NCBI GenBank assembly: GCA_947244595.1
Contig: CAMXKT010000002.1
Coordinates: 47,520-79,519, forward strand
DNA length: 32,000 nucleotides
Direction of reading: 5' to 3'
Source of the DNA: an uncultured Oscillibacter sp.
GTDB taxonomy: Bacteria; Bacillota; Clostridia; Oscillospirales; Oscillospiraceae
Below, piece by piece: positions 13,630-18,013 of the stretch. A program made the translations under genes and the position numbers. The notes under the pieces are model-generated. The model worked only from the letters and a program-made list of their open reading frames with translations. It had not been told where the DNA came from and did not search any database. How positions within the stretch are numbered: the first letter of the stretch is position 1; each line of letters starts with the position of its first letter.

Positions 13630-13703
13630 GCAGGGTTAGTACATCGGTAGTACAACGGCTTCCCAAGCCGTGGAGGCGGGTTCGATTCCCGTACCCTGCT
13701 CCA
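13630..13703 (+). tRNA. tRNA-Gly(CCC): tRNA-Gly, anticodon CCC, CCA encoded
   Basis: Hand-folded cloverleaf: acceptor GCAGGGT/ACCCTGC, D-stem GTAC/GTAC, anticodon stem ACGGC/GCCGT with loop TTCCCAA, variable GGAG, T-arm GCGGG TTCGATT CCCGT, discriminator T, then CCA. Total length 74 nt. Confidence 0.9.
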
Positions 13704-13777: not shown

Positions 13778-14974
13778 TTATTGGCCGGAAACGCTCTTGA
13801 TAAACTTCTGCATCCGTTCTGCGCTGTCCCTCTTCATCTGGTCCGTCACATGGCCGTAGACATCCAGCGTAAAGGCAGCTGTGGCATGGCCCAAATTGCC
13901 CTGTACAGTTTTGATATCATCCCCGCTTTTGATTGCGGCGACGGCGTAGCTGTGACGAAGGTCATGCACCCGGGCATCCGGCCGGCCAATCAGAGCCACC
14001 AGCCGCTTATAGTTGTTATAGACGGTATACGGCGAGAGATGCTTTCCTAATTCATCGGTAAACACAAGACCGCTGTCCTCCCAGGCTGGGCCCGCCCGGA
14101 GACGCCACTCCGCCTGTCTGCTCCGCTGGCGGCGGAGCAGCTCCATCACGAAGTCGGCGGGCGTGATCCGCCGCCACCTATCGTTTTTGAGGGACACAAG
14201 GCTGTAGCGGCGCTTCCCGGTTTCATCCTTGGCCCGCTGGAGCTGCCTGTCAATCAACAGCGTGCCCTTGTCGAAGTCCACACGGTCCCAGGCGAGGCCC
14301 AGTACTTCTCCCTTCCGCAGCCCTGTAAAGAGAGTAACGAGATACAATAGCTCAAATCGGTGGCCTTGTACCACGTCCAGGAACCGGCGGATGGCGTCAT
14401 CATCCAGCGGCTTGATATCTTTCTTTATGACCCGAGGCAATGCGCAGGGGTCCGAAGGATTCACGCGCAGATACCCAATCATAACAGCCTGTTGAAGAGC
14501 TTCATGGAGTACCCCATGAATATTCTTTATGGTCTTTGGAGATAAGCCCTTTTTGCTGAGCCCGTTGTAAAAATGCTGGATAGTGTGCGCATTCAGCATA
14601 TCAAGCCTGGCCGCCCCCAATTCCGGCAGAAGATGATTTTGGGTGATACTCCGGTATGCCTCTTGAGTCCTTGGCTTAACGCCTACAAGGTAATCCTGCT
14701 CCCAGGCTGTAAGCCACTGCCCAACTGTCAGCTTGCACGCCTCCTGGAAAATGCCCTGGCCGATCTCCGCTGTGACCTCCCGGAGCTTCTGGGCAACCTC
14801 GGCCTGGGTTTTCCCGGAGATGGAGTGCTGCTTCTGCTTCCCCGTTTTGGGGTCAAAGCCGCAGGTGTAGCGGCCCTCCCAGTATGTATATTCTTTTCCG
14901 TTCTTCTTCACGATCTTCTTTCGGATGGACCCGTCCCCAGAGGCGGCCCGTCCGCTTTTTTTACCGCGCGGCAT
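13778..14974 (-). CDS. int: tyrosine-type site-specific integrase (phage integrase family)
   Basis: 398 aa. It has an N-terminal arm-binding-type domain (KEYTYWEGRY...GKQKQHSISGKTQAEV), a core-binding domain, and a catalytic domain with GLRKGEV (Arg), HDLRHSYA (H-x-x-R) and LGHATAAFTLDVYGH (Tyr). A strong SD GAAGGAGGT lies 9 nt upstream. Confidence 0.95.
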   Translation of the reverse strand: MPRGKKSGRAASGDGSIRKKIVKKNGKEYTYWEGRYTCGFDPKTGKQKQHSISGKTQAEVAQKLREVTAEIGQGIFQEACKLTVGQWLTAWEQDYLVGVKPRTQEAYRSITQNHLLPELGAARLDMLNAHTIQHFYNGLSKKGLSPKTIKNIHGVLHEALQQAVMIGYLRVNPSDPCALPRVIKKDIKPLDDDAIRRFLDVVQGHRFELLYLVTLFTGLRKGEVLGLAWDRVDFDKGTLLIDRQLQRAKDETGKRRYSLVSLKNDRWRRITPADFVMELLRRQRSRQAEWRLRAGPAWEDSGLVFTDELGKHLSPYTVYNNYKRLVALIGRPDARVHDLRHSYAVAAIKSGDDIKTVQGNLGHATAAFTLDVYGHVTDQMKRDSAERMQKFIKSVSGQ

Positions 14975-15251
14975 GATCTATACCTCCTTCCGCCGCCCGG
15001 CAGGAATCACCTTCCAGCGTAGCGGACATAGCGGTATCTGTCCAGGACACGTTTGTCCCGGTTCCGCCGGTCAAGTACTCCAGCAACTCATGCTTGAGAA
15101 TGCGGATCTGTTTGCCGGCGCGGACGCTCTTGATCTGGCCGGAACGGACCAGGGCGAAAGCCGTGTTCCTACCGATGCAGAGAATGGGCATCAGCTCCTC
15201 CACCGTCAGCACCAGAGGAATATCATCAAAGCTCAAAGGACGGTCAGCCAT
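14961..15251 (-). CDS. xis: excisionase-family (HTH_17/MerR-like) DNA-binding protein
   Basis: 96 aa. The motif LTVEELMPILCIGRNTAFALVRSGQIKSVRAGKQIRILKHEL is a typical excisionase-type HTH. It overlaps int by 14 nt and the upstream recombinase gene by 8 nt. Confidence 0.8.
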   Translation of the reverse strand: MADRPLSFDDIPLVLTVEELMPILCIGRNTAFALVRSGQIKSVRAGKQIRILKHELLEYLTGGTGTNVSWTDTAMSATLEGDSCRAAEGGIDHAAR

Positions 15252-16137
15252 TTTCCTTCCCCTCCTTCAGCGACGCCAGATAGATATTCGTCACATCGTC
15301 TCGGCCATGCCCCAGGAGCTTAGAGACGGCCTTCCGGGCCCCAAAGGGCGTAACCCCGGCGTCGATGAAGCCCCGGTACTTCTCCGCCGCGTAGGTGTGG
15401 CGCAGGCCGTGGAAGGTCATGGGTCGGGTGGAACCTTCATCCTGAACAGTGGAGCGGTTCAGCCAAATGAACGCCTGGAGGGCCTTGATTGCCTCGTGGG
15501 TCTCCTGATCGTCGGAGACATACAGTTTATGTCCGCGCGGCGTCCGCTTCAAATCCTGCTGAAGACGCTGGACCAGGAGGTCGTTCAGCGGGACGGCCCG
15601 CACCAGGCCGCCCTTGCCCTTGATGGTGATGGCCTTTTCTTTGACCGCCTTGGCCGCCGTGGCGGTGTCGATGCGGAAGCATTCATGGATACGGAGCCCG
15701 GCGAACCGGCCCAGGTAGAATATAGAGACATAATCCTCCCGCCCACGCTCCAGAGCAATGCCAAGCATCCGCTCAAACTCGCCGGCGCTCCACGTCCGGT
15801 CGACGCCGCCGAAGGTCCGGCGCTGGAGGCACAAGTCCCCATTCCCCGGCAGCTCATACCGGGCACTGGGAATCAGGTCATGGAAAAAGCGGATGGCCGA
15901 GAGGTCCGTCTTGATGGTGGAGGTGGATTTTCCTTGCTCCTGGAGATACGCGACATACGCATAAATATGCTTCGGCGCGATATTTGCCAGCCGCTCTAGA
16001 CGATAGACCTCCGCCAGAAAGCGGCAGAAGCGCTGCATGGCCTCATAGTACCGGGCCCGGGTCTTATAGCTGCCCTGGCGGTTGTGACGGTGGAGCTTGT
16101 CCACCTGGGACATGAGATTACGGTAATGATTTGACAT
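15244..16137 (-). CDS. second tyrosine recombinase (integrase-domain protein, about 297 aa)
   Basis: ORF 15244-16188 starts with GTG. The preferred start is ATG 16137 (MSNHYRNL), 7 nt after AAAGGA. Catalytic signature: AGLRIHE (Arg), KGKGG (Lys), HGLRHTYA (H-x-x-R), LGHGRDDVTNIYL (His/Tyr). It lacks the N-terminal arm-binding domain seen in int. Confidence 0.85.
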   Translation of the reverse strand: MSNHYRNLMSQVDKLHRHNRQGSYKTRARYYEAMQRFCRFLAEVYRLERLANIAPKHIYAYVAYLQEQGKSTSTIKTDLSAIRFFHDLIPSARYELPGNGDLCLQRRTFGGVDRTWSAGEFERMLGIALERGREDYVSIFYLGRFAGLRIHECFRIDTATAAKAVKEKAITIKGKGGLVRAVPLNDLLVQRLQQDLKRTPRGHKLYVSDDQETHEAIKALQAFIWLNRSTVQDEGSTRPMTFHGLRHTYAAEKYRGFIDAGVTPFGARKAVSKLLGHGRDDVTNIYLASLKEGKENG

Positions 16138-16985
16138 AAATGCATCCTTTCTTGATTTTAAAAAAGGACGCAGCTCACCCATTGGCACAGTCCAGCCATT
16201 TCCGGCTTTTATCCGCCGGACCTCCCAGGCCGAAACCGCGCCAATGAGCTTAGACCCATTGAAAACAGCAGGTTTTATTGGCTGGGAGCAGCCGATCTAG
16301 CTGGTCCGTCTCCGTTGTATATCGTGGTCAGTATGATCGCCGTGAAGCCGCTCAAAAGCGACGGGGAAGGAAATTCCCGCGGCAGACGCGAAGCCCTGGG
16401 CAAGGCGCGGGAGAGTTCCCGCCTGCGTCCGTGGTCCCGTCCCCGGCAGAAGGACGGCGAAAGTGTGAAGGAAGTCCCGCCCTGCCGGAGGCGGAACTGG
16501 CCGGCAGTCTGGGCCGGCCCGGAAATAGAATAACTTTTCATCTGGTTTTGCATAGCGAATCCTCCTTTTTTTTACCCTTGGCAGGCGGGGGTGACTGGTC
16601 CCCTCCCGTTGCGCAGAGCGCCGGGTCCTGTTACTTTTGGACGCAAAAAAGCCCGCGCCTTCCCAGTGGGAAAACTCGGACACTTTGAAACACGGATACT
16701 GTGCTTGCTTTCGCAAAGCTCTGTTACTGTATGGCTACAGCATAGCAGACGCCCCGCAGAAAGTCAAGACCCGTTCCGGCTCCTTCATCATCATTCAAAA
16801 ATGGGCAGACTGCCCCCCTAAACACCACTCGGCGGCTTTCGCTCACCGAACGTACAACCCTTGGGATCGACCGGCCCGCCGGCGTCTCCACCACAACGTA
16901 TGCAATGCTGCTCCCTGGCAGCCCCCAGGCCAGCGGCCCGGCTCCGAGTTTCACGGAGGGCGCACAAACAATCAATAATGGTTTC

Positions 16986-17014
16986 TTTATATCACGGTTT
17001 ACAGATTTTGTCAA
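16986..17014 (-). promoter_or_regulatory. near-consensus promoter firing leftward into the ORF-poor region and the recombinase-xis-int operon
   Basis: Minus strand reads TTGACA (17014-17009), 17-nt spacer, TATAAA (16991-16986), preceded by TGa (extended -10). Confidence 0.6.
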
Positions 17015-17085
17015 TGCTTGCCTTGATATCTTCTATTCTTGGCCTATCCAGAACAGCGGGCATACTACGCCCTTTGTCACGCCGT

Positions 17086-17126
17086 TCCTCCCTAACATAG
17101 TCCGCCCTAACTTACTCCGCCCTAAT
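17086..17126. repeat. three tandem 15-bp-spaced direct repeats, TCC(T/G)CCCTAA(C/T)
   Basis: TCCTCCCTAAC at 17086-17096, TCCGCCCTAAC at 17101-17111, TCCGCCCTAAT at 17116-17126. They lie 70-110 bp upstream of the leftward promoter. Confidence 0.8.
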
Positions 17127-17144
17127 GATAGATCAATTCTATCA
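17126..17144. repeat. 19-bp palindrome TGATAGA-TCAAT-TCTATCA (operator-like)
   Basis: Perfect 7-bp arms at 17126-17132 and 17138-17144. Confidence 0.75.
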
Positions 17145-17154
17145 ACTCGAAAAC

Positions 17155-17245
17155 GGCCTGTCTAGGTGGAAACCTTCCACCCTGTAGGCTTGCGCCTCTG
17201 AGGTACAGGGTCATTATACTTTCCGGCCTAGAGGCTGTCTAGGTG
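17155..17245. repeat. direct repeat CTGTCTAGGTG (two copies) flanking two hairpins
   Basis: The copies are at 17158-17168 and 17235-17245, both preceded by CGGCCT. Between them are hairpins GGTGGAA-ACC-TTCCACC (17165-17181) and CCCTGTA...TACAGGG (17180-17210). Confidence 0.7.
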
Positions 17246-17314: not shown

Positions 17315-18013
17315 TCACACTTTGAACTGATCGTTCCCTTCCATATTCTTTTCTCGTTTGTATGGATTTCCACAGCTTCTTTTTCCATCAATATGTTCAA
17401 ACAGATCTCGGTCCTTGCTGATTTCCATTTCCATGGGGTCCAGCACAAAGTCAAGCCCTTCACGTCTTGCCAGTTTTGCGGCCGGAACAAAATCACTGTC
17501 TCCGGCAATCAAAACGATTTGCTCAACTTGATGCTTATATGCCAAAGAAGCTATATCCATACCAATTTTCATATCAACGCCCTTTTGCCGAATAGTTAGT
17601 TCAAAATCCTTTTCGGTAAGAGCGTCAGGCGATAGGGTCCCATTGCAAAGTTTTTTCACAGAACTATACGAAAGTGTATATACGGAGTTCGTATCATCCA
17701 AAAAGCCAAGCCTTAGTGCGACTTTCCTTTTTTCCTTCAGGCAATTTAAAAAATCACACATCCATGAATAGTCTGGTGTAGCGCCTAGATTAACCGTACG
17801 TTTCAACAGAGGATGATACATTTGTTTATTGACTGGAGCACAGTCATAATAAAAAATGCGATATAGCTCATGGTGGTATACGTGCTCTTTCAAATGTCTC
17901 CGGACATATGTAATTAAGCCGCTTGCTGTTTCCTGTGGGGAGTGCTGTCCCCACAGTTTTTTCGCCCGTTTTCGATAAAAACCACCATCAACCAAAATCG
18001 CTGTTTTCGACAT
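17315..18013 (-). CDS. NYN-domain (LabA/DUF88, PIN-like) putative ribonuclease
   Basis: 232 aa. The pattern AILVDGGFY ... KGVDMKIGMDIASLAYKHQVEQIVLIAGDSDFVPAAKLARREG matches the NYN-domain acidic-residue pattern. The gene is AT-rich: about 37-38% GC in two hand-counted 60-nt samples. Confidence 0.8.
   Translation of the reverse strand: MSKTAILVDGGFYRKRAKKLWGQHSPQETASGLITYVRRHLKEHVYHHELYRIFYYDCAPVNKQMYHPLLKRTVNLGATPDYSWMCDFLNCLKEKRKVALRLGFLDDTNSVYTLSYSSVKKLCNGTLSPDALTEKDFELTIRQKGVDMKIGMDIASLAYKHQVEQIVLIAGDSDFVPAAKLARREGLDFVLDPMEMEISKDRDLFEHIDGKRSCGNPYKREKNMEGNDQFKV

Follow-up and report, generated by a model that had tools for sequence, protein, structure and literature searches.

In phages HK022 (put) and lambda (N-nut), a promoter-proximal RNA and terminators stand ahead of int-xis and only transcripts from the right promoter pass them; put itself consists of two stem-loops. 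The P4 CI RNA and the P1 c4 RNA are small structured prophage leader RNAs, tRNA-like and processed by RNase P, that pair with repeated complementary sites. The present work concerns a gene-free region on the minus strand of a 32,000-nt stretch of DNA from an uncultured Oscillibacter sp. (hereafter the window), located directly upstream of genes coding for an arm-less XerC/D-like tyrosine recombinase, an excisionase and an integrase (recombinase-xis-int). Our results suggest that this is a two-part RNA region, formed by a small four-way-junction RNA and a ~500-nt leader with a divergent xerDC motif at its core, which acts in cis control of the recombinase-xis-int operon, a reading to which we assign a probability of about 0.7. 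The xerDC motif was described in a survey of 224 motifs (PMC5737381) and is included in Rfam as RF03062.

The window resembles the HK022 and lambda systems in its promoter-proximal structured RNA, terminators and integration/excision genes, but its RNA is a four-way junction that also occurs as a stand-alone terminated unit, and antitermination could be ascribed to it only by analogy. Like the P4 and P1 RNAs, the small RNA of the window is cloverleaf-like, and the leader holds the complementary heptamers CCGGCAG and CUGCCGG; however, host and genes are different, and a brief inspection by eye, which was not a systematic search, found nothing convincingly complementary between the flanks of the small RNA and the leader. 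STAXI (RF01728), found upstream of 'XerDC'-type integrases in conjugative islands, is likewise a structured leader tied to mobile-element recombinases, but it has tandem pseudoknots, a different architecture and proteobacterial hosts, and had no match in the window. With xerDC, the window shares the three domains (P1, then P2 and P3, each of the latter with two inner hairpins), the conserved 3' tail (AUCAUACUGA), the XerC/D-like gene context and hosts among the Clostridia. The differences from xerDC are the P2b loop, UUGCCCA in the window and GAGUUCAG in RF03062, a longer P1 loop, and the embedding of the window motif in a far longer leader, of which it forms the core, with flanking hairpins and loop partners that fall outside the Rfam model.

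An initial annotation, made by eye, could not assign the region to any RNA family, and at gathering thresholds Rfam finds only a tRNA-Gly in the whole window. A permissive search, however, gave one credible match, to xerDC, at 16326-16455 on the minus strand (47.5 bits, E 4.8e-6; gathering cut-off 72.5 bits), which covers the full model (1-126). DNA-level searches over 200 genomes of the family returned fragments only, and homologous loci were gathered instead by a protein search with the recombinase, which provided 80 of them. Copies of xerDC above the cut-off (77-100 bits) were present in four of 16 scanned loci (L048, L096, L044 and L039), ~230 nt upstream of the recombinase start, and the window match, which ends 189 nt before the recombinase ATG on the same strand, has the same relative position. 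In addition, a nucleotide profile of the window leader found homologous sequence ahead of the gene in 58 of the 63 loci with enough flank. Since the match extends over the full model, bona fide copies stand at the homologous position and the leaders themselves are homologous, sequence comparison places the leader core of the window in the xerDC lineage as a divergent member. The remaining features of the family agree with this placement: the motif lies on the same strand and upstream of a XerC/XerD-like recombinase gene (a second tyrosine recombinase, int, comes later in the operon), the host belongs to the Clostridia, and the seven helices are 92-100% paired over 17 homologues, with at least one double change in each. 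The whole genome contains exactly two xerDC matches, the one in the window and one on contig C5 (47.2 bits), and 14 control genomes contain none.

The structure of the leader was drawn from the window sequence and the Rfam model and evaluated on a MAFFT alignment of 17 homologous leaders (16535-16135). Standard pairs occupy 95.9% of 1206 cells, double changes are found in 26 of 71 pairs and none of 500 shuffles reaches the covariation score; when the partners are slid by one to three columns, pairing falls to 38-48%. Covariation supports every helix of xerDC (P1, P2, P2a, P2b, P3, P3a and P3b, each with double changes) and also hairpins Hc and Hd, which lie upstream of the Rfam boundary (Table 1). 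The loops of Hd (CCGGCAG) and P1 (CUGCCGG) covary with each other as a predicted kissing loop that is 97.5% paired, with double changes in three pairs. Its variants follow the clades, as CCAGCAG/CUGCUGG and ACGGCAG/CUGCCGU, and distant clades have GCCGA/UCGGC and ACCGG/CCGGU at the same two places. A second contact, which we consider moderately supported, would join the P2b loop CUUGCCCA (16404-16397) to UGGGUGAG (16181-16174), just 5' of the hairpin that buries the Shine-Dalgarno (SD) sequence of the recombinase. This long-range pairing is 93.3% paired, has three double-changed pairs and a covariation score reached by 0 of 500 shuffles, and complementary pairs occur at comparable places in the Rfam-typical clade (GUUCAG/CUGAAC) and in another clade (UUCCCAA/UUGGG); two subclades with an uncompensated mismatch speak against it. 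The SD hairpin, formed by GCGUCCUUU and AAAGGAUGC (16171-16142), has a predicted energy of -17.8 kcal/mol (z -3.86).

Another weak, terminator-like hairpin (GGGUG-AGCUG-CGUCC followed by U6) could form at 16166-16180 (minus strand) and would be incompatible with the long-range pairing as well as with the SD hairpin; the distant clade has a hairpin GGGYG-RACU-RYGCCC at the homologous place. The 3' end of the leader may work as a three-state expression platform. A strand exchange in which the 5' strand of P2 (GGACGCAG) would pair with the anti-SD strand (CUGCGUCC) was also considered and was rejected.

Many G-U pairs, in the junction as well as in the leader, are kept on the recombinase strand only, which locates the structure in the transcript of that strand. 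This observation bears on the proposal that the inverted repeats act as DNA, as sites for the XerC/D-like recombinase or for repressors. Hc would suit such a role, with GGCCGGC and GCCGGCC separated by a 7-bp spacer in a geometry like that of a core site (16519-16499), the palindromes at the promoter are probably operators, and the survey of 2017 states that comparative analysis cannot tell RNA motifs from single-stranded DNA motifs (PMC5737381). However, the frequent G-U pairs are strand-specific, duplex DNA sites do not have covarying loop-loop or long-range pairings, and more than 20 helices over 850 nt all lie on the strand of the downstream genes. We regard the DNA-site explanation as very unlikely.

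The initial annotation saw no convincing coding frame in the region and offered either a structured regulatory leader or non-coding RNA controlling int/xis, or a decayed gene. Our results agree with the first observation, given that open reading frames (ORFs) within 16138-17014 have no match in Pfam or PHROGs, and that tblastn searches with nine ORF translations from both strands hit the same homologous loci about equally well. Translations of all frames matching alike means that conservation is at the nucleotide and not at the protein level, and the nucleotide conservation of this non-coding stretch exceeds in places that of the adjacent genes. Substitution patterns point the same way. In the region of a 92-codon ORF on the minus strand, variable columns per codon position number 32/29/42 in the window clade and 14/12/12 in a second clade, whereas the recombinase gene of the same sequences has 90/67/225 and 47/30/165, a third-position bias of about three-fold that the ORF region lacks. 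The frame of this ORF relative to the RNA motif also differs between clades. Because of these frame shifts and the missing third-position excess, the 92-codon ORF is not a conserved protein. The fact that the minus strand is open for ORFs of 92 and 139 codons is the argument for a decayed or unrecognised protein-coding gene, but with no domain match, no third-position bias next to a gene that has it, an unconserved frame and an arrangement kept over dozens of species with compensatory base-pair changes, this explanation is extremely improbable. The comparison of covariation with codon-like substitution proposed in the initial annotation thus resulted in compensatory pair changes in the helices and no codon-like pattern in the ORF. 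Together with nucleotide conservation and the xerDC motif at its homologous position, this favours the leader/non-coding RNA option, in which control of int/xis would be the function.

The same ORF deserves attention for its start. As was noted from the sequence before, a GGAGG sits 7 nt before its ATG, and this GGAGG is found at the same aligned place in 17 of 17 near-clade sequences, with ATG or TTG after it in most of them and no clear start in two; the arrangement of SD plus start recurs in the L042 clade. The ORF may be a translated upstream ORF whose peptide sequence is irrelevant, or the GGAGG may instead form a helix with a conserved CUUCC (CUUCCUU) stretch further downstream. In the first case, ribosome traffic through xerDC would be the regulatory event, as in leader-peptide attenuation, and amino-acid constraint would be expected to be absent, as it is. 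The recurring start signals and the fact that the upstream ORF always crosses the entire structured domain, stopping 80-150 nt before the recombinase start, are consistent with this possibility. On the other hand, an ORF of this kind is missing from the Rfam-typical clade, where the best xerDC copies occur, its frame varies by clade elsewhere, two of the three frames are open anyway in this GC-rich DNA, which makes openness weak evidence, and the purine run can find its partner within the RNA fold. Regulation by translation of this ORF is therefore an unlikely alternative in our view, though one of the two strongest.

The 5' half of the region starts with a sigma-70-type promoter, TTGACA with a 17-nt spacer and a TG-extended -10 element, which the initial annotation had already recognized and which is conserved, with constant spacing to the four-way junction, in ~40 related loci. 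A simple promoter scan misses it because its -10 hexamer ends in A. The usual promoter of the homologues consists of TTGACA, a palindrome of the type ACAATATATTGT and then TGGTATAAA; this palindrome, located between -35 and -10 in most homologues and degenerate in the window, may be an operator. The piece directly after the promoter is the most widely conserved of the 5' half, and in every case the junction lies ~13 nt downstream of the promoter. Its P1 helix, UGUGCG/UGCAUA in the window, closes three hairpins, and the junction is flanked by the conserved sequences AUUGAUUGUUUG (5') and CGUUGU...GGUUGUACG (3'). Minimum free energy folds of single sequences gave the same four-way junction, with P1 as UGUGCG/UGCACA, in ~25 of ~35 divergent copies. 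RNAalifold on a plain MAFFT alignment recovered P1 alone, hence a covariance model (R1) was seeded by hand from ten sequences with the fold-derived structure, and it matched 41 copies in 81 sources. In the resulting alignment 95.1% of cells are paired, double changes occur in 18 of 23 pairs and the covariation score is 0.457; the corresponding values are 0.189 for shuffles, none of which (of 500) attains the observed score, and no more than 0.085 for slid controls. Since this alignment was fitted to the model it is biased towards the structure, and the independent single-sequence folds serve as a safeguard. The nested hairpin proposed earlier at 16907-16934 was mis-paired, as covariation resolves it into two separate hairpins, arms P3 and P4 of the junction, and of the two GNRA hairpins described with it, which do exist in the window, homologues preserve neither the loops nor the pairs.

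The junction has no match in Rfam, the permissive search of the window included, and when it was tested as a tRNA, ARAGORN and the Rfam tRNA model called only the tRNA-Gly of the window; its topology is cloverleaf-like, with a loop of 3 nt on the middle arm. By these comparisons it is a separate RNA motif that has not been catalogued before. It was found in 9 of 150 sampled genomes of the family, and in the genome of the window it is confined to the two recombinase leaders (window and C5). At L100:1470-1670 the same operator-bearing promoter and junction run into a strong terminator, beside an unrelated membrane-protein gene instead of a recombinase gene, and this promoter-junction-terminator unit indicates that the junction can be a free-standing small-RNA gene. 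Tandem pairs of promoter and junction were also observed upstream of one leader (L044:2675-3198, L062:2731-3192 and L070:2516-2927, also L072 and L075), with second junction copies that are far more divergent (21-43 bits).

The stretch from this promoter to the recombinase gene had been taken as one transcribed unit of 840 nt. Our analysis divides it by a weak terminator-like site, a second promoter-like site and an intrinsic terminator (Table 1), and with terminators between promoter and gene an 840-nt transcript would be at best a read-through product. The intrinsic terminator has a predicted energy of -20.7 kcal/mol (z -2.35) and is aligned in 17 of 17 near homologues. A scan for hairpins followed by U-runs gave one or more hits between junction and gene for 39 of 40 loci; the hits are mostly 490-565 nt upstream of the gene start, that is, directly before the leader, and in many loci a terminator-like hairpin already follows the junction after 35-65 nt. 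A promoter scan found no sigma-70-like promoter between the intrinsic terminator and the leader.

This organization could suggest that the junction is a promoter-proximal antitermination element acting in cis, comparable to HK022 put, that lets transcripts from its own promoter pass the terminators. The junction always stands at the same short distance from a conserved, probably operator-controlled promoter, nearly all loci have terminators after it, no promoter was detected beyond the last of them, and in 39 of 63 loci the junction is 700-1250 nt upstream of the recombinase start. In contrast, the L100 junction is followed by a strong terminator and then an unrelated gene, and the close terminator-like hairpin of many loci and the tandem copies resemble small-RNA genes; no likeness of the junction to put or EAR was seen, although no comparison was made. 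Antitermination by the junction thus seems to us rather improbable, to about the same degree as regulation by the upstream ORF, and the junction may be either a cis-acting antiterminator or a trans-acting small RNA.

A different type of promoter was observed outside the region, at 17050-17245 on the minus strand, where two tandem promoters (CACCTAGACA with a -35 element, 17-nt spacer and TATAAT or TAGAAT) come before three UUAGGGCGGAG repeats, spaced 15 nt apart, and the hairpin GGGCGUAGUAUGCCC. This module of promoters, repeats and hairpin shifts its place among loci: it is upstream of the junction in the window and between junction and terminator in the L021 group, which has AGGUCAGAU-type repeats instead of UUAGGGCGGAG, and C5 and L018 have it as 200 additional nt inserted beyond the terminator. 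The operon transcript may in truth begin at this module, or the module may be a platform for protein binding.

Comparison among homologues establishes the anatomy of the region, namely its conservation, secondary structure, tertiary pairings, position relative to the genes and freedom from coding constraint. For its function, the most economical reading would be two levels of regulation in cis, one through read-through of the terminator and one at the initiation of translation. The first part would be a ~180-nt RNA (17014 to ~16797) with the junction as its core, started by the conserved and probably operator-controlled promoter, and the second part the 5' leader (~16640-16137) of the recombinase-xis-int operon, with the divergent xerDC motif at its centre. 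Given that no promoter of the sigma-70 type was found between terminator and leader, the operon would be reached mainly by read-through of the terminator from upstream promoters. Within the leader, hairpins Hc and Hd, the kissing loop and the long-range pairing would tie the xerDC motif to the sequence 5' of the SD-sequestering hairpin, and the folded leader may hold translation of the recombinase low until its fold is changed by some factor, be it a ribosome, a protein or the small RNA. The products for excision and integration would in that case appear only when they are due. A far more speculative proposal is that the leader is a large folded RNA cofactor, scaffold or sensor of the arm-less recombinase that sets direction or timing, with the junction RNA as a trans partner, which would constitute an RNA layer of control for prophage excision in gut Clostridia; we hold this to be a long shot.

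Several points weigh against cis control by the two-part region. The xerDC motif of the window scores below the gathering cut-off, so that membership in the family does not follow from the score, and no functional study of xerDC was found in the literature. Promoter, terminators and extent of the RNAs are predictions. An SD and start codon kept inside the leader would not be explained by a simple untranslated leader. In addition, the hairpin that buries the recombinase SD is nearly invariant in the near clade, which leaves it without covariation, and the distant Rfam-typical clade lacks it, while the support for the strand exchange between P2 and the anti-SD strand was limited to invariance and one sequence.

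From the genes around the region, the locus is the integration module of a prophage-like element inserted at tRNA-Gly (Table 1), with DnaB, ParA and ParB-like genes further to the right, beyond the NYN-domain and helix-turn-helix (HTH) genes. Matches of the 297-aa recombinase to XerC/XerD are weak, and its closest relatives, at 87% amino-acid identity or less, come from genomes of Oscillibacter and other Oscillospiraceae; the nearest loci are from Oscillibacter, Oscillospiraceae, Flintibacter, Lawsonibacter and Flavonifractor (Clostridia). The sole match in a phage collection was 66 nt long and fell in a repeat region outside 16138-17014. A paralogous int-xis-recombinase module with the same leader is present in the same metagenome-assembled genome (C5:1500-5260), with ~79% identity to the window over int-xis-recombinase and 89-91% over the non-coding stretch; the assembly is 73% complete, and a second strain or a second prophage are both compatible with this module.

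Elsewhere, the recombinase-xis-int module adjoins varied tRNA genes (Gly, Pro, Leu, Val, Trp, Ser, Cys, Ala and Thr), which sit ~2.2-2.7 kb downstream of the recombinase start (loci L017-L095). Since the tRNA neighbours differ among loci, the choice of target varies while the leader and the arm-less recombinase remain constant. A role of the leader as a guide or bridge RNA, similar to that of IS110, was considered and rejected: leader and tRNA-Gly junction of the window share no exact match of 9 nt or more, and in 23 loci at nine tRNA types the longest match averaged 8.9 nt within the own locus and 9.0 nt across loci, a comparison that covered the tRNA-side junction. One close homologue of the recombinase (86% identity), at L019:900-1180 on a contig of just 3.7 kb, lacks the leader, in whose place stands an 88-codon ORF, Cys-rich and with a strong SD, that ends 3 nt upstream of the recombinase start.

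Table 1. Features of the recombinase-xis-int locus and of the upstream RNA region, in window coordinates.
Feature	Position	Strand	Description
tRNA-Gly(CCC)	13630-13703	+	ARAGORN and Rfam tRNA model
Arm-type integrase (int)	13778-14974	-	ORF/domain annotation
Excisionase-family HTH protein (xis)	14961-15251	-	ORF/domain annotation
297-aa arm-less XerC/D-like tyrosine recombinase	15244-16137	-	ATG at 16137; Phage_int_SAM_1 and Phage_integrase domains
Gene-free region studied	16138-17014	-	Between recombinase gene and NYN-domain gene
Putative 3' expression platform	16186-16135	-	Box GCCAAUGGGUGAG containing UGGGUGAG, SD-burying hairpin, ATG 16137
Hairpin Hf	16219-16202	-	CCGGC-GGAUAAAA-GCCGG, followed by AAA
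Conserved single-stranded box	16317-16306	-	CAACGGAGACGG, followed by a variable stretch
xerDC P3	16383-16339	-	Encloses P3a and P3b; followed by conserved 3' tail GAUCAUACUGAC
xerDC P2	16430-16384	-	Encloses P2a and P2b
xerDC P1	16457-16437	-	Loop CUGCCGG at 16449-16443
Hairpin Hd	16497-16474	-	Loop CCGGCAG at 16488-16482; covariation-supported
Hairpin Hc	16519-16499	-	Covariation-supported
SD-like GGAGG, ATG and 92-codon ORF	16565-16561; 16553; 16553-16275	-	ORF crosses the xerDC domain
Leader-start hairpins	16622-16611; 16603-16587	-	GGCGC-UCU-GCGC; GGGG-ACCAGUCA-CCCC; small, conserved
Intrinsic terminator (predicted)	16681-16644	-	Bulged stem, then CUUUUUU; between small-RNA units and leader
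Second promoter-like site	16767-16739	-	TTGACT, 17-nt spacer, TATGCT, with TG; kept in closest clade only
Weak terminator-like hairpin and U-run	16815-16797	-	Sequence scan
Variable 3' part of small-RNA unit	16892-16797	-	Insertion hairpin, GGUUGUACG box, GAAA-loop hairpin 16847-16831, weak terminator-like site
Four-way-junction RNA (module C)	16980-16893; core 16966-16897	-	Core ~70 nt; covariance model R1, 106 bits
Sigma-70-type promoter (predicted)	17014-16986	-	TTGACA 17014-17009, 17-nt spacer, TG-extended -10 TGATATAAA at 16994-16986
NYN-domain gene	17315-18013	-	Beyond it on the right, HTH repressor-like gene, also -

Up to now, xerDC has been an orphan bacterial RNA motif without a known function. 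Here it is the core of a larger leader with predicted tertiary contacts, bracketed by a terminator on its 5' side and, in the window clade, by a hairpin on its 3' side that would sequester the ribosome-binding site. New with respect to Rfam are the ~500-nt extent of this leader, in which two long-range contacts covary, a divergent clade under the cut-off, the framing by terminator and SD hairpin, and the junction RNA, a second small RNA motif that often accompanies the xerDC leader. The Rfam model at its cut-off misses the window clade, and its boundaries exclude the partners of two of its own loops. The leader heads the recombinase-excisionase-integrase operon of prophage-like elements at many tRNA genes across Oscillospiraceae, and several cultured carriers exist, among them Flintibacter muris DSM 110149 (L028), Colidextribacter sp. 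OB.20 (L023), Lawsonibacter hominis NSJ-51 (L039), Oscillibacter valericigenes An890 (L053) and Intestinimonas massiliensis (L077). If the proposed role of the leader in the control of expression is true, it would act in abundant gut bacteria as a conserved RNA switch for the integration and excision of prophages.

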